Assembly: GCA_964502925.1 (NCBI GenBank)
Contig: CAZCYH010000015.1
Location: forward strand, 6,002-70,001
Source: an uncultured Leptospira sp.
GTDB taxonomy: Bacteria > Spirochaetota > UBA4802 > JAGODF01
Direction of reading: 5' to 3'
DNA: 64,000 nt
The notes beneath the pieces are model-generated. The model was given only the letters and a program-made list of their open reading frames with translations. It was not told the origin of the DNA and searched no databases. The position numbers and the translations under genes are program-made. Positions 42,541 to 49,424 of this stretch are shown here, one piece after another. The first letter of the stretch is position 1, and every line of letters starts with the position of its first letter.

Positions 42541-42794
42541 TTTTTATGCTTCTTTTCCAGGCTGCTGATTTTACGGTCAATATATACAAGATACAGTGAT
42601 ACTACAAACCAGATTCCGAGTATTACCCACATTACTGAAAAGCTTTGTACATTTTCAACGTGTTGTTCCTGGGCAGTTACTCGCAAAGCTCCCTGCGCAA
42701 AAAGGTTCGCGCTATCTGAGAATACAACTACTACCGCGGAAAAGAAAATTTTCAGAAAAAAATAGAGAAGAGGATTATTGCAGTTTATGGTCAT
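42537..42794 (-). CDS. ccmD: CcmD-like small membrane protein
   Basis: Between ccmC and ccmE; TM (VMWVILGIWFVVSLYLVYID) followed by charged RKISSLEKK. Confidence 0.65.
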   Translation of the reverse strand: MTINCNNPLLYFFLKIFFSAVVVVFSDSANLFAQGALRVTAQEQHVENVQSFSVMWVILGIWFVVSLYLVYIDRKISSLEKKHKK

Positions 42795-43425
42795 CTGCCT
42801 GCCTCGAAAATTCATAATGATGTATTCTCTGACGAATTGAAAGAAACTGTAGATATAAAAGAGTGAATGCCACTAATGAAACGATGAGGGTGAGTCTTGT
42901 CGGTACATCGGCCACCAGGCTTCCCGAATGAGGGTGCAGGGAACCGAATATGCGGGGAAACACCGCGATGAGGAAGGGGAGAGATGCCATCGCAATAATC
43001 AAATACGCTGAGGTTATTTTGCCTCGTCCCTCGTTACCTCTCAGGGAGGCATTCAGGCTGAAGTATGCAAGGTAGATGAGCATGAGGATGATGATTGATG
43101 TTTGTCTCGGATCCCAATTCCAGAAAGAGCCCCAGCTCAACTTCGACCAGATAGAGCCGGATGCTGTGGCAAGGACGGTAAAAAATAAGCCGATTTCAGC
43201 GGAAAAACGCGCAGTTATCTCATGAGAATCACGCCCTCTCAAAAGAAATGCGATGGAGAGTGAACCCGCTATCAGAAACGCGAGCGTTGCCGTCCATGCC
43301 AGAGGTACATGGAAAAAAAGCAGCCTGCCTGCTTCGCCGTGGACTTCCGCAGTGGGTGCATAGCGAAAAGCCAGAACAATTGAAATGGGCATTGCAATAT
43401 GTATGAGCCGTGCGATGTGTTTCAT
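42775..43425 (-). CDS. ccmC: Heme exporter CcmC
   Basis: FFHVP, WWD motif WGSFWNWDPR, SLHP. Confidence 0.93.
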   Translation of the reverse strand: MKHIARLIHIAMPISIVLAFRYAPTAEVHGEAGRLLFFHVPLAWTATLAFLIAGSLSIAFLLRGRDSHEITARFSAEIGLFFTVLATASGSIWSKLSWGSFWNWDPRQTSIIILMLIYLAYFSLNASLRGNEGRGKITSAYLIIAMASLPFLIAVFPRIFGSLHPHSGSLVADVPTRLTLIVSLVAFTLLYLQFLSIRQRIHHYEFSRQADDHKLQ

Positions 43426-44081
43426 TCATTATTCCAGATATGAGGAAAAATAAGATAGGATATCGAAATGAGCGCGCCAGAAAATGCAAGAAAAAAAATC
43501 ATCTCAGATGCTACGGAGATAGTATGCCGTTCAAAGCAAAGCGCGGTGGCGCGTATTGCGGCAATGAGAACAGGAAGAAGAACCGGAAATGAAATCACGG
43601 CGAAAAGAGCTCCTTTCATGGCTGATCTGGCTGCAATTGCGGAAAGAACTGTTGCCGCTGACGAAAGCGCAAAGCCGCCGCCAAGGATGATAGTGATAAA
43701 AATAAATGGCGATGGCACTTCTCCTTCATGGAAAAAGACAAATGCAGAGACAATGACAACCTCTAAAAGTGTAAAAAAGCAGATGTTGAAAATCAATTTG
43801 GAGAAAAACACAGCAGCAGGGGTTGATGTCAGCCTGAGAAAAAGGGAAGTGCCGCGCTCCTCCTCGCGCGTAAAAGAATGCGCAAGACCGATAATTCCAG
43901 CAAAAAAAATGATTATCCAGAGGAGAATGGCTCGTTCCCATGCACCAAGGGATGTCCCTGCAGATGCAATGGCGGAAGAAAGCGTTGTGCTGATGGCAAA
44001 AGAAAGTACGATGAATATTGAGCGCCGTTCACGGAATTCCACCAGGAGGTCTTTGCGTATTAATCGTCGTATCTCACGCAC
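43422..44081 (-). CDS. ccmB: Heme exporter permease CcmB
   Basis: KDLLVEFR, REEERGT, FPVLLPVL; six TM segments. Confidence 0.9.
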   Translation of the reverse strand: MREIRRLIRKDLLVEFRERRSIFIVLSFAISTTLSSAIASAGTSLGAWERAILLWIIIFFAGIIGLAHSFTREEERGTSLFLRLTSTPAAVFFSKLIFNICFFTLLEVVIVSAFVFFHEGEVPSPFIFITIILGGGFALSSAATVLSAIAARSAMKGALFAVISFPVLLPVLIAAIRATALCFERHTISVASEMIFFLAFSGALISISYLIFPHIWNNE

Positions 44082-44697
44082 CGAGCACTACCCTCCTGGG
44101 GCAGATTGCCGCTTCATCCGGGTCGTTGGTTGCAATTACGATGGTTTTATGAGGAATTAATGTTTCCATGAGGGAAAAAAATGTTTTTTTTCCCGTTTCG
44201 TCTAAATTTGAAGTCGGTTCATCGAGCAATAGCACTGGAGGATTCAAAATCAGAGCTGTGATGATTTTCAGGCGCTGAATCATGCCGGTTGAAAATCGGC
44301 CGATGTGCAGGTCGCGGTACTCATGCAGAGCGAATTGTTCAAGCAGATGCGCACCTCTTTTCATTGTATCAGTATTGCCAGAAATGAATTGTATTGTTTC
44401 CAGAGCAGTCAGTTCATCGTAGAAGCGAAGCCGTGGACTTACGAATCCAAAAAAACATTCGAAATTTGATATGATGGTACGACTGTTCTGGAGGTAGCGC
44501 ACGCTTCCTGAGGAAGGACGCCGAATGCCCCCCAAAATTTCAAGAAGGGTCGATTTTCCCGAACCATTGGGGCCGCAAATTGCACACGGATGTGATGGGG
44601 AGGCATCAAAATCCATACAGGAAAAAATAGTTCGATTACCGTATTTTTTTGAAATATTAGTAGCGTGGATAGAAATTGAAAGCATGAATGTGCACAA
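44074..44697 (-). CDS. ccmA: Heme exporter ATPase CcmA
   Basis: Walker A GPNGSGKST, signature FSTGM, Walker B LLLDEP; first gene of the ccm cluster. Confidence 0.85.
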   Translation of the reverse strand: MCTFMLSISIHATNISKKYGNRTIFSCMDFDASPSHPCAICGPNGSGKSTLLEILGGIRRPSSGSVRYLQNSRTIISNFECFFGFVSPRLRFYDELTALETIQFISGNTDTMKRGAHLLEQFALHEYRDLHIGRFSTGMIQRLKIITALILNPPVLLLDEPTSNLDETGKKTFFSLMETLIPHKTIVIATNDPDEAAICPRRVVLGA

Positions 44698-45669: not shown

Positions 45670-46254
45670 ATGCTTCATTTAAAAAACACCTATTATCTGA
45701 TGCGGCATGGAGAGAGCGAAGCAAATGAAAAAGGAATTATCATCAGCTCTCCTCTTGTCGGCGTTTCGCGCTATGGGCTCACCGAAAAAGGGCGGGCTGA
45801 AGTGCTAAAAAAGGCGCGTACGATTAATCAGCAGCTACATCTGGATTGTGTTATCTCATCGGACTTCTTGCGTGCACTCGAAACGGCAAGGATTCTGGCT
45901 GCCGAGTGCCATATACAGGAAATCCATACCAGTGCTCTTCTCCGCGAGAGGTCTTTTGGAAGCCTTGAAGGTGGTGATGACTCGGCATACCAGAGAGTAT
46001 GGGAACTGGATGCGATTGACCCGGACCATCATGAATATGGGGTAGAATCCTGCAGGGAGGTTGCTAAACGCGTCCTTGAATTCATATCCGATTGTGAAAA
46101 TACCTATAGCGGTTCGACTATTCTGGTGGTCGCGCACGGTGATGTTCTTCAAATTCACTACTGTGCCGTGCATGGTATTCCAGTTCGATTGCACAGAACC
46201 GTGCCAAATATAGAAAAAGCGGAAATCCGACCGCTTATTGCACTGAACATGTAA
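45670..46254 (+). CDS. Histidine phosphatase (phosphoglycerate mutase family)
   Basis: RHGES, SSDFLRALETA, LRERSFG, VAHG. Confidence 0.9.
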   Translation: MLHLKNTYYLMRHGESEANEKGIIISSPLVGVSRYGLTEKGRAEVLKKARTINQQLHLDCVISSDFLRALETARILAAECHIQEIHTSALLRERSFGSLEGGDDSAYQRVWELDAIDPDHHEYGVESCREVAKRVLEFISDCENTYSGSTILVVAHGDVLQIHYCAVHGIPVRLHRTVPNIEKAEIRPLIALNM

Positions 46255-46310
46255 GTGCATATCTCGGTTTGGGTATCATTACATTTTTTTATGTAGCATT
46301 AAAAATTTTT

Positions 46311-46339
46311 TTGACGCCAAAGAAGGCTTGGAGTATATT
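46311..46339 (+). promoter_or_regulatory. Sigma70-type promoter
   Basis: TTGACG(46311-46316)-N17-TATATT(46334-46339); predicted start site about 46345-46346. Confidence 0.7.
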
Positions 46340-46345
46340 ATATAT

Positions 46346-46424
46346 GTCGTCGGGAAACCGGCGGCAAACCTTCCAAACAATCCGCTAAGTTGCTGACGAT
46401 TCCGCCAGGAGTCGTCTTTTTTTT
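46346..46424 (+). ncRNA. Candidate riboswitch/attenuator or about 79-nt sRNA upstream of the MCP gene
   Basis: Begins at the predicted start site with an 8-bp GAAA-tetraloop hairpin (46346-46365), then an A/C-rich linker, then an intrinsic terminator. The 5' arm can alternatively pair with the terminator 5' arm. Confidence 0.55.
46395..46424 (+). terminator. Intrinsic terminator in the MCP leader
   Basis: GACGATTCC-GCCA-GGAGTCGTC followed by T8. Confidence 0.8.
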
Positions 46425-46481
46425 AAAAAATTTATCAATTTTCGTGTTATTACGAAAAAAATACTTGACGATATCAAATAG

Positions 46482-46495
46482 ACTGACATGTCAGT
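46482..46495. promoter_or_regulatory. Perfect 14-bp palindrome, candidate repressor operator
   Basis: ACTGACATGTCAGT, 42 bp upstream of the MCP ATG; a TetR gene follows the MCP. Confidence 0.55.
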
Positions 46496-46536
46496 ATTAT
46501 ATACACAGCATCGTTTCCCGTGCAGGCGGCCAATTC

Positions 46537-48702
46537 ATGAAAATATGTATTGCTGGAATAATGCTCTTTTTTCCTTTCGCACTTTTTGCTTTAGAACCGG
46601 TGATGCTTGATGATAACTTTTCCAGTGGCGCCATCAGCAATAAAATAGAGTATTTGGAAGATAAAACTGTTCGTCTTTCATTTGATGATGCTCGAAAAAG
46701 CCGCGAATGGAAGCGTTCTGGTGAAGATGCGTTCAATTTCGGTTTTACCGAAAGCGCATACTGGTTCCGATTTACGATTGATAATCGATCGCAATCCGAT
46801 AAGTTTCTTATTGAAATCTCCTATCCGATGCTTGATTCGATCATCCTCTTGCGTCCTGATGAAAGGGGGGGATACACTGCATACGAAACTGGCGACATGT
46901 TTCCCTTTTCGCATCGTGAGGTGGAACATGTATCATTTGTGTTTCATATTGATCAGCAGCGTGGAAAGACGGAGGAGTATTATTTCAGGATAAAGACTGA
47001 AAGCTCTTTTAATTTTTCAGCAAAATTATATACCTACACATCATTTTTTACGAAACTCAACAGCGAACAGCCGATAATCTGGATTTTTTACGGACTCATG
47101 ATCATTATGGTGGTGTACAATTTAATAATATTCATTTCGAGTAGAGATGTAAGCTACCTTTTTTATTCAATATTTATTTCAACATGGATTGTCCTTCAAA
47201 TGTGCCTAAACGGCTATGCTTTTCAGTATCTATGGCCCAACGCGATATGGTGGGCGAATAGTTCTCTTCCTTTTTTTATTGCGATGACATATGGCACGGT
47301 AGGAATATTTTTCATTTTTTTCCTGGAGCTTAGAAAGCATCCTCGGTTTTTTCGAATGGGGATATGGTTTTTTTGTATTATACCAGCGTTTGTTTTGTCG
47401 GGATTATCGCTGATAGTGCAGTATTCAGTTGCAATCAAGATGACGACGGTGTTTGCCGGTATTTCAGCGGCATTTTTGTATTGTGCGGGATTGATACTTG
47501 CCTTGAAGTATAAATCCCGGCAGGCGTATTTTATCATTATGGGATTTATGGGGTTTGTAATTGGAATCCTTCTATACGTGCTAAAGACTTTTGGTATGTT
47601 GCCGCAGAATTTCTTTACGCAATGGAGCATTCAAATCGGATCTGCTCTCGTTGTTGTGCTGCTTTCATTCGGACTAGCTGATAAGATAAACATAATGAGA
47701 AGGGAACTTGTGCATTTGCTGGATGCTCAGAAAATTAATGAACGTACAGCGCTGGAAAAAGCTCATTTCTTGGAGGGAATTGTTTCCACCGTCAATGGAA
47801 TATCGTCTGATTTTATAAGCCTAAGCCGCGAGCTCGGAGAAGTCAGTACGGCTTTTTCACAGCTTTCAATGGAACAGGCATCCACCAGCGAACAGATGTC
47901 GGCGACGTTTGATGAGCTGGTAGCATCTATTGAAAGAATTCACCAGTCAACACTTCATCAGCAGGAGGAAGGTGAAAAATCAAAGCGGCTTGCAGATGAG
48001 TTGAGTGCAGCTCAGCGATCGATGGTGAAAGAGAGCATTCAAGTTGCCAGAAGCGTTGAGTCAATTTCCCGTGCTGCGAAAACCACTGAAGAAAGTTTGA
48101 AAATGATGACTGAGCGGATGAATATCATAAACGCGGGCGGTAAAGAAATTGACCAGTTTGTCTCCATCATCGACGATATTTCTGATAAAATCAATTTGCT
48201 TTCCCTCAATGCCGCGATTGAAGCAGCCCGTGCCGGAGAGTATGGACGTGGATTTGCCGTAGTTGCCGATGAAATTGGAAAGCTTGCCCAGGCTACATCG
48301 GACAATTCTAAAAGCATTGCAAGCCGTATTAAAAGGATAATTGCCGATATTGAGGAGGGAACCAATTTAGTCCTGAGCACAAAAGATTCGACGGATGTCA
48401 TCTTTTCAATGGTTGCTACAATAAAGAAAGGCATTGATGAGGTAAAAAACTTGATGGCGGCGCAGAACAAACTATTGGATGTTGTCGTACATCAAGTCGG
48501 GATAATTGAGACCCTTTCAAAAGATGTTGTTGTTTCGACACAAGAGCAGAAGGATTCCATGGTGCAAACCATGCACACCATTGAAAGGTTATCTGAAATG
48601 GCTATGGAAATATCATCCGCAAATCATAAAATCGTGGGCTTCATACAGGCCATCAGTTCTAATTCGGAGAAACTTGCCAGGGCTGTTGAAGGTGCCTCGT
48701 AG
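46537..48702 (+). CDS. Methyl-accepting chemotaxis protein with 7TM-DISM sensor
   Basis: Signal peptide, 7TMR-DISM extracellular domain ([12 protein letters not shown]), seven TMs ([10 protein letters not shown]) and MCP hairpin ([33 protein letters not shown]). The ORF-track TTG at 46390 overlaps the terminator. Confidence 0.92.
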
Positions 48703-48803
48703 CTTCCTTCATGGTTTTGTATTACCATTCAAAATTATCTCAGTGAATATTTTACTTGCAGGATTTGCCTTTCCCGTCAATAATGGTTGCGGGTGGGCTG
48801 AAA

Positions 48804-49424
48804 ATGCGGGGTGAGTTACGCAAAAAACAAATATTGGACTGTGCTAAAACGATTTTTTCCAGGAAGGGGTTTTACGATACCCAGATGGATGATATCGTTG
48901 AGATGGCGCGCATCGGGAAAGGAACCATTTACCAGTATTTTCGAAACAAGGAAGATATCTTTTTGACCCTTCTTGAATCCTTTGCTGCTGAATGGGAAAA
49001 ATTTTCGCAAATTAATCTACGTGAAATCACAGATGGACCTCCGTTTGAAAGTTTTCATATAAATTATCTCTATGCACGTATATCAAAAACGCTCCAGTTT
49101 TTTCAGGAAGACCCTGAGCGCAGCAATATCATACTTCGTATGGGCCCTGGTGTTAACATCGAATTCGACAGGTATTTTAAGCATTTTGAAAGCAGGATTA
49201 TTTCTGCGATTTTGGGCGATATTCGGCTGGCTCAGCGCCTCGGTAATATTTCAAAACACATCAACCGCGAACTTCTTGCCGATGGCATCCTCGGCGCGGT
49301 GTACCGCATGGCGCATACGCTTTTTGTGGTTGAGCGTGAAAAATATGCCGCGGGCAATTACGATGAACATCTCAGGCAGATTATTCTTGTGCTCGCACAT
49401 GGGATTTTTTATCAGGATCTCTGA
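48804..49424 (+). CDS. TetR/AcrR family transcriptional regulator
   Basis: ILDCAKTIFSRKGFYDTQMDDIVEMARIGKGTIYQYFRNKEDI. Confidence 0.92.
   Translation: MRGELRKKQILDCAKTIFSRKGFYDTQMDDIVEMARIGKGTIYQYFRNKEDIFLTLLESFAAEWEKFSQINLREITDGPPFESFHINYLYARISKTLQFFQEDPERSNIILRMGPGVNIEFDRYFKHFESRIISAILGDIRLAQRLGNISKHINRELLADGILGAVYRMAHTLFVVEREKYAAGNYDEHLRQIILVLAHGIFYQDL

Follow-up and report, generated by a model that had tools for sequence, protein, structure and literature searches.

The window, by which we mean the whole stretch of 64,000 nucleotides analysed here, holds a compact intergenic unit between a histidine phosphatase family gene and a gene for a 7TMR-DISM methyl-accepting chemotaxis protein (MCP). 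The earlier note had read this unit as a TTGACG-N17-TATATT promoter, an 8-bp GAAA-capped hairpin, an A/C-rich linker with CCTTCC and a terminator with eight Ts, upstream of a 7TM-DISM chemoreceptor. All of these elements are present, and Pfam domains confirm the class of the downstream gene. The features are as follows.

45670-46254, + strand: histidine phosphatase family gene, upstream neighbour (Pfam His_Phos_1)
46300-46310, + strand: A/T-rich, UP-element-like tract (AAAAATTTTT-type tract in 12 of 12 copies)
46311-46316, + strand: -35 hexamer TTGACG (promoter scan; TTGAC(G/A/T) with a fixed 17-nt spacer in 12 of 12 copies)
46334-46339, + strand: -10 hexamer TATATT (promoter scan; TATATT or TATAAT in 12 of 12 copies)
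46346-46424, + strand: predicted small RNA of ~79 nt, with a predicted start and conservation from G46346
46346-46365, + strand: 5′ hairpin P1, 8 bp with a GAAA loop, GTCGTCGG-GAAA-CCGGCGGC (alternative spelling GUCGUCGG-GAAA-CCGGCGGC)
46367-46388, + strand: invariant, predicted single-stranded core AACCUUCCAAACAAUCCGCUAA, candidate seed, identical in 12 of 12 copies
46369-46374, + strand: CCUUCC (CCTTCC in the DNA) inside the core
46395-46424, + strand: intrinsic terminator, 9-bp stem, 4-nt loop and T8 (terminator scan)
46395-46416, + strand: terminator hairpin GACGATTCC-GCCA-GGAGTCGTC, with T8 at 46417-46424
46482-46495, no strand assigned: palindrome ACTGACATGTCAGT in the MCP upstream region, outside the small RNA, a conserved island
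46537-48702, + strand: 7TMR-DISM MCP gene, downstream neighbour (Pfam 7TMR-DISMED2, 7TMR-DISM_7TM, MCPsignal)
48756-49424: TetR-family gene, flanking, beyond the MCP gene

The linker between the two hairpins is A/C-rich and ~29 nt long, and the terminator stem has five G-C pairs in its 9 bp. The hexamer GTCGTC occurs twice, at 46346-51 and 46411-16, which agrees with the earlier placing of one occurrence at the 5′ end and the other in the 3′ arm of the terminator. From the stop codon of the phosphatase gene to the terminator of the small RNA, the terminator scan found no other terminator-like site on the + strand. The A/T tract may act as an UP element.

Scans of the window found 4 promoter-like sites where chance predicts 3.5, and 3 terminator-like sites, a slight excess over the 1.3 that chance predicts. 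The 79-nt RNA folds with a minimum free energy (MFE) of -31.2 kcal/mol (z = -4.0; 1 of 200 shuffles was equally good), and the arrangement of hairpin, open linker and terminator accounts for 79% of its ensemble. The window holds no second copy, either within 3 mismatches of a 34-mer or by covariance model. Because the promoter match taken from the window alone is no better than chance, the case had to rest on comparison, and the decisive evidence for the predicted unit is comparative, drawn from 12 copies.

Homologues and conservation footprint

Eleven homologues were collected via four routes from spirochaete metagenome-assembled genomes (MAGs) and Logan contigs, making 12 copies with that of the window. 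An exact 29-mer search gave two syntenic copies in GTDB genomes (L001 and L002). Relatives of the upstream phosphatase (65-78% protein identity) were traced to their contigs and gave four more (L046-L049), which were thus not selected on RNA sequence. Five more spirochaete copies (L061-L064 and L066) came from a second 18-mer that allows for a CAACC variant; its match L065 is the contig already counted as L049. A covariance model built from the first seven copies gives these five distant ones 66-81 bits. The distribution is narrow: eight species-level genomes among GTDB representatives and three Logan contigs, the carriers being labelled Leptospiraceae, Spirochaetota or Spirochaetes MAGs. The homologue searches matched no genome of a named Leptospira isolate.

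The edges of this distribution were probed from several sides. A GTDB scan with AAACCTTCCAAACAATCC gave only chance matches beyond L001 and L002, and the only one of these to be checked, L018, falls within a coding sequence; the CAACC variants escaped this pattern and were picked up by the second. A metagenome scan with GGGAAACC-N7-AACCTTCCAAAC returned one chance match, again within a coding region. Phosphatase relatives at 56-59% identity (L050-L058) no longer show synteny and gave no RNA copy. Upstream of MCP orthologues at 40-52% identity (L005-L014), nhmmer detected no RNA homologue, and the covariance model run over these whole loci found no copy. Rfam 15 at gathering score matches nothing in the window or in seven homologous loci, and relaxing the threshold to E <= 10 over 46200-46600 brings up only weak, chance-level, terminator-driven matches to small RNAs, the best being bablM at 21 bits against a 38-bit cut-off. 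The RNA is a new family, narrowly distributed, absent from Rfam and of a familiar architectural kind.

All 12 copies share one layout, consisting of an A/T tract, TTGAC(G/A/T), 17 nt, TATA(T/A)T, 6-7 nt and a first G, with spacer and discriminator sequences that vary freely. Mean pairwise identity across the five complete syntenic intergenic regions is as follows.

Stop codon to A/T tract: 46%
A/T tract plus -35: 91%
Promoter spacer (17 nt): 53%
-10 hexamer: 100%
Discriminator: 63%
P1 hairpin: 88%
Linker: 94%
Terminator: 94%
Spacer after T-run: 45%
TTGAC-to-palindrome block before the MCP gene: 70%
MCP leader: 44%

Promoter spacers and flanks overall are only 35-53% identical. This profile is the footprint of a putative promoter, a predicted functional transcript and its terminator, and comparison of the copies shows where the predicted unit begins and ends. 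The promoter geometry proposed in the earlier note is kept throughout, with the promoter holding its position relative to the predicted RNA 5′ end in all 12 copies. Because this geometry is conserved and conservation begins exactly at that G, the predicted start at ~G46346, as the earlier note had placed it, is well supported.

The unit occurs in three gene contexts. In the window and in L001, L002 and L046-L049 it lies between the phosphatase and MCP genes. In L064 the order is MaoC, the small RNA, a convergent 125-aa ORF and the 7TMR-DISM MCP gene, and in L061, L062, L063 and L066 it is guaA, the small RNA and a convergent ~125-aa ORF. The convergent gene thus follows the RNA in 5 of the 12 genomes, its stop codon abutting the T-run; neither it nor guaA has a homologue in the window or the close loci. 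Comparison across these contexts shows the predicted small RNA unit to be independent of its neighbouring genes.

The MCP gene, for its part, appears to have an operator-like palindrome of its own. Between the terminator and the MCP start codon (the ATG at 46537, itself conserved in the alignment) the palindrome forms a conserved island, and CTGAYATRTCAG precedes the MCP orthologue in L001, L002, L047, L049, L064, L006 and L007. It is still present in L064, where the small RNA is further from the MCP gene, and it is kept in L006 and L007, which have no RNA within ~450 nt upstream of the MCP start. Its presence in loci that lack an adjacent RNA suggests that the MCP gene carries its own regulatory site. 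A standard sigma-70 promoter could not be pinned down for this gene, TTGAC standing at a variable distance from the palindrome; the case for an MCP promoter of its own is made by the conserved palindrome and the loci without an adjacent small RNA, not by a clean -35/-10 match.

Hairpins and core of the predicted RNA

Comparison establishes both predicted hairpins of this ~71-80-nt family. In the 12-sequence alignment, which for pairing counts was fitted to the model, 98.4% of the cells of P1 plus terminator are paired, and 96% of those of P1 alone. At three P1 pairs both partners have changed, C-G having become U-A in four sequences at one pair and in one sequence at another, and G-C having become A-U in two at the third. 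None of 500 shuffles reached either the covariation score or the paired fraction of P1 and terminator. RNAalifold recovers both hairpins from a plain MAFFT alignment, and single-sequence folds give the same two in all ten copies tested. In L061, L062, L063 and L066, P1 is shortened to a 4-bp GCUG/CAGC stem closing a 5-8-nt loop of unrelated sequence, and the loop variants of the family include GAAA, GAGA, GUAGAA, AUUAA and AUAGAAAA. That the distant copies keep a P1 so different in sequence and loop points to selection on a 5′ hairpin as such and not on its sequence or loop. In the terminator, 100% of cells are paired across the 12 sequences; its loop is variable and its stem changes only from A-U or U-A to G-U or U-G wobbles. 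A 9-bp stem with a U-run, as would end a short product, is present in every one of the 12 copies.

Between the hairpins, the 22-nt core AACCUUCCAAACAAUCCGCUAA shows no variation in the 12 copies. Eighteen of its nucleotides were required by the search pattern for the five distant copies, so that invariance there is partly forced; the core is equally invariant in the unbiased L046-L049, and the four positions outside the pattern do not vary either. Its predicted unpaired probability is 0.91-0.99 in all ten copies folded. Comparison thus shows an invariant core that is predicted to stay unpaired, a conserved and apparently accessible candidate seed region. The core also resembles the anti-SD end of 16S rRNA.

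Mode of action and alternatives

With this organization, 46311-46424 is very probably an independent small non-coding RNA gene, and the stand-alone ~79-nt sRNA that the earlier note had offered as one of two readings fits all of the comparative evidence as a predicted transcript. We infer that the unit is transcribed: a strong sigma-70-type promoter (A/T tract, TTGACG, 17 nt, TATATT) would start the RNA at ~G46346, the 5′ hairpin probably protects its 5′ end, and the 3′ intrinsic terminator hairpin with its U tail would close it. The two hairpins would keep the ~29-nt linker single-stranded, leaving the core exposed as the presumed working part, which would most likely pair in trans with mRNAs. 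CCUUCC is complementary to GGAAGG and, with wobble, to the ribosome-binding-site-like GGAGGG or GGGAGG; by covering GGAAGG- or GGAGG-type ribosome-binding sites it could alter translation or stability. The earlier proposal that CCUUCC acts as an anti-SD seed suits the invariant, predicted-unpaired linker core and holds as far as sequence comparison goes. Hfq typically binds sRNAs by the terminator hairpin and its U tail, and an Hfq-like chaperone may assist. Leptospira encode Hfq-like and Rho homologues (PMC5243855). That the core base-pairs with mRNAs at translation-initiation regions is the mechanism towards which we lean, and an independent sRNA gene acting by base-pairing is, taken as a whole, likely.

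A stand-alone sRNA could instead bind or titrate a protein through the 22-nt core. It is the chief alternative: a seed typically needs 7-12 nt, fewer than the 22 that are invariant and unpaired here, and the same alternative was raised for the ultraconserved motif of Yfr1 (PMC2190773). The target searches would also suit it. By duplex energy on both strands of the 64-kb window, the best candidate (-25.0 kcal/mol) is antisense inside a gene and no better than the minima of shuffled seeds (-24.0 to -30.6 kcal/mol), and against the start regions of the neighbouring 125-aa genes the seed scores no higher than shuffles. Such a missing target is weak evidence, however, since the scan covered 64 kb and a few neighbouring genes. 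Protein sponges such as CsrB/RsmZ carry many motif repeats, whereas the motif here stands in one copy per RNA. GGA is not conserved in the P1 loops, on which ground a CsrA sponge was rejected as a separate candidate. We consider protein binding in place of mRNA pairing unlikely.

The small RNA gene may also have additional local effects in the clade of the window, where it lies between the phosphatase and MCP genes and co-oriented with them in seven loci. Its terminator probably ends the phosphatase transcripts too, since it is the first terminator-like site after that gene, with no other on the + strand beyond the phosphatase stop codon. Some read-through into the MCP gene is possible. A fuller form of dual use, with leaky termination adding the promoter's output to MCP expression and part of the RNA pool being processed from the phosphatase 3′ UTR, would draw on the alternative pairing available in most close copies, but the terminator is strong (9 bp, five G-C pairs, T8) and conserved. 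The arrangement is also not ancestral, because a convergent gene separates the small RNA from the MCP gene in L064. As an account of a mainly sRNA-producing unit, this dual use is quite improbable. Something of a long shot is a clade-wide master regulator whose unusually long core does something other than ordinary seed pairing, for example by docking on a conserved component of the translation apparatus, be it RNA or protein; in the window clade the RNA could in addition have been recruited, by way of the alternative pairing between P1 and terminator, as a conditional read-through leader for the MCP gene.

Far less credible is the other reading put forward in the earlier note, a riboswitch for the chemoreceptor gene, in which the 5′ arms of P1 and the terminator would pair with each other as an antiterminator, leaving a ligand or factor to determine whether transcription continues into the MCP gene. 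The unit does stand immediately upstream of the MCP gene and co-oriented with it in seven loci, and the two alternative pairings that had been proposed (46346-53 with 46393-400, an 8-bp helix, and 46360-64 with 46382-86) can both be drawn in the window sequence. Nascent RNA lacking the 3′ arm of the terminator even favours the alternative fold slightly in five of the seven close copies (-16.1 to -18.2 kcal/mol, against -14.7 to -15.2 for P1; in the window, -18.2 against -14.7 for P1 alone). In L047 and L049, however, the MFE fold of the nascent RNA is still P1, and P1 is also the earlier of the two to be transcribed and to close. For the full-length RNA, P1 with terminator reaches -31.2 kcal/mol, against -21.1 for the best antiterminator fold, a gap of ~10 kcal/mol.

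The antiterminator pairing is not conserved: across the 12 copies 85.4% of its cells are paired and 21 are not, no compensatory change is seen, and 478 of 500 shuffles match it. Where the 5′ arm has changed, the matching change lies in P1 and never in the terminator arm, and the distant copies with the 5′ arm GCUG cannot make this pairing. A conserved choice between terminator and antiterminator is thus lacking, nor was a position in the 5′ leader of a co-oriented gene found to hold for most homologues. In L061, L062, L063, L064 and L066 the next gene is convergent, so that in these five genomes there is nothing in cis to regulate, and the MCP gene keeps a conserved palindrome of its own upstream, even in genomes where no RNA was found beside it. 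The unstructured 29-nt linker is unlike an aptamer fold. The resemblances to the fluoride/crcB motif and to c-di-GMP-I that the earlier note had seen did not bear out, neither RF01734 nor RF01051 being matched at gathering score or at E <= 10, and no other Rfam family reaches its gathering score. Riboswitch or antiterminator control of the MCP gene was rejected on Rfam, energy, covariation and gene context. It costs little to draw mutually exclusive pairings in a single sequence, and here they failed comparison; a false lead is thereby removed, the chemoreceptor gene not being under riboswitch control.

Least credible of all is that no functional RNA exists and the locus is the phosphatase gene's terminator with a chance promoter match, or a short peptide gene: promoter-like matches do occur at chance rate in the region and a 14-codon frame (ATG 46344 to TAA 46388) can be read in the window sequence, but all 12 copies keep the promoter hexamers and geometry while the spacer varies, the RNA body stands well above its flanks in conservation and recurs in three gene contexts, the ATG is missing in L002 and elsewhere absent, replaced or shifted, a 1-nt indel (CAAACC against CAACC) breaks the frame, and a ribosome-binding site is absent. 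The opposite strand has no ATG. A small-peptide gene was accordingly rejected on the unconserved ATG and the frame-breaking indel, and the copies share no conserved reading frame, as befits a non-coding RNA.

Comparison with known systems

To our knowledge, spirochaete regulatory RNAs beyond those of Borrelia and pathogenic Leptospira are almost unknown. In a survey of transcription start sites and sRNAs in L. interrogans, most sRNAs were detected without recognisable terminators (PMC5243855). With its conserved promoter, covarying 5′ hairpin, terminator and invariant core, the family described here could be submitted to Rfam as a new entry and used for annotating such genomes, and it gives access to RNA regulation in a lineage of uncultured spirochaetes. 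It is a useful family, although one that would not surprise a specialist.

The riboswitch expression platforms compared here are those of the fluoride and c-di-GMP-I families. The RF01734 (crcB) model describes a pseudoknotted ~52-nt aptamer with conserved nucleotides, and RF01051 (GEMM-I) two adjacent hairpins with a tetraloop and its receptor. Our RNA resembles such platforms only in that the 5′ arm of its terminator has two possible partners, and this in the window sequence alone; it has no aptamer-like conserved structure, its alternative pairing is not conserved, and five of its genomes have no co-oriented downstream gene.

RoxS/RsaE of Firmicutes, CcsR of Rhodobacter and AbcR of Rhizobiales are trans-acting sRNAs with C/U-rich anti-SD seeds. 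Like them, the RNA described here appears to be encoded by a stand-alone gene with its own promoter and intrinsic terminator, and it exposes a C/U-rich motif that could pair with G-rich ribosome-binding sites. Their C-rich motifs, however, lie in hairpin loops, often several per RNA, whereas here there is one, in an open linker, and no sequence homology links them to this family.

The closest architectural parallel is Yfr1, in which two stem-loops flank an unpaired stretch with the ultraconserved ACUCCUCACAC (PMC2190773). Both are short RNAs (54-69 nt for Yfr1, ~71-80 nt here) with a 5′ stem-loop and a 3′ Rho-independent terminator, both carry an unpaired, pyrimidine-rich, anti-SD-like motif (ACUCCUCACAC in Yfr1, AACCUUCCAAACAAUCCGCUAA here), and in both the stems and loops vary while the unpaired motif stays constant. 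Both were also found by searching for motif plus structure, and both often have a purine-biosynthesis neighbour, guaB for Yfr1 and guaA in four loci here, which is probably a coincidence. The two nevertheless share no sequence similarity and no Rfam match, ACUCCUCACAC being absent here, and the invariant stretch of our RNA is twice as long. Yfr1 is cyanobacterial and phylum-wide, whereas the present family belongs to spirochaetes and to a handful of uncultured Leptospiraceae-like genomes. The RNA is an analogue of Yfr1 and not a member of its family, the two having in common an architecture in which paired ends hold a constant, unpaired motif between them.

Palindrome before the chemoreceptor gene

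The sequence upstream of the chemoreceptor (MCP) gene contains a perfect palindrome that looks like a candidate operator for a dimeric regulator. The orthologues of this gene keep CTGAYATRTCAG also at loci without an adjacent small RNA (sRNA), and exact CTGAYATRTCAG occurs only once in the whole window.

Window 46482-46495: palindrome ACTGACATGTCAGT, perfect, 14 bp, 42 nt 5' of the MCP start codon
CTGAYATRTCAG upstream of the MCP orthologue, close loci: L001 4713-4724; L002 2206-2217; L047 3345-3356; L049 3314-3325
CTGAYATRTCAG upstream of the MCP orthologue, other loci: L064 2624-2635; L006 2858-2869; L007 2776-2787

A TetR-family gene lies 3' of the MCP gene in the window and at L003, L004 and L064; none was found within 1.5 kb after the MCP gene at L006 and L007, where no sRNA copy was found beside it.

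At three of the distant sRNA copies (L062, L063 and L066), the -35 hexamer of the sRNA promoter is embedded in TTGACTGGTCAG, a TGAC-N2-GTCA inverted repeat whose half-sites and spacing are identical to those of the MCP palindrome (TGAC-AT-GTCA). A promoter comparison showed such a repeat at the sRNA -35 to be absent from L061, another distant copy, and from the window's clade. The likeness may be coincidence, because TTGAC already gives one half-site.

Upstream transcription and chemoreceptor start codon

Window 42775-44697, - strand: cytochrome c maturation cluster (ABC_tran), divergent from the histidine phosphatase gene

At the related loci L046-L049 the domains of this cluster are ABC_tran, CcmB, Cytochrom_C_asm, CcmD_alt and CcmE, and the synteny of this cluster is kept in all close relatives. 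From the phosphatase stop codon (46254) to the sRNA terminator, we found no terminator-like site on the + strand (46255-46424). The sRNA terminator is probably also the end of the phosphatase mRNA, in which case the sRNA sequence would be contained in the 3' UTR of that message. The situation differs at L062 and L063, where a separate hairpin terminator of guaA precedes the sRNA promoter.

A mechanical ORF list gives the MCP frame as 46390-48702, stretched upstream to a TTG at 46390 and over the sRNA terminator, whereas it is the ATG at 46537 that is conserved as start codon; in an automatic annotation, a coding sequence wrongly extended in this way could therefore mask the sRNA.

Species label of a close locus

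The metagenome-assembled genome holding L001 (DYLV01000100.1), which also has an sRNA copy, is titled 'Leptospira biflexa'. This label is probably wrong, because the L001 chemoreceptor is 84% identical to its counterpart in the window (GC 44%) and neither of two 18-mer scans found the sRNA in named Leptospira isolate genomes.

Reading frame convergent to the small RNA

Each of the five distant sRNA copies is followed by a conserved, convergent ORF of ~125 aa, whose stop codon abuts the sRNA T-run (sRNA-oriented coordinates).

L061 4497-4874; L062 2773-3150; L063 669-1046: ~125-aa ORF, convergent
L064 1892-2344; L066 5538-6035: ~125-aa ORF, convergent

A Pfam search gave no match, and a search of the window and the close loci for homologues of this ORF found none. 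Any transcript of the ORF that runs past its end would lie antisense to the sRNA.
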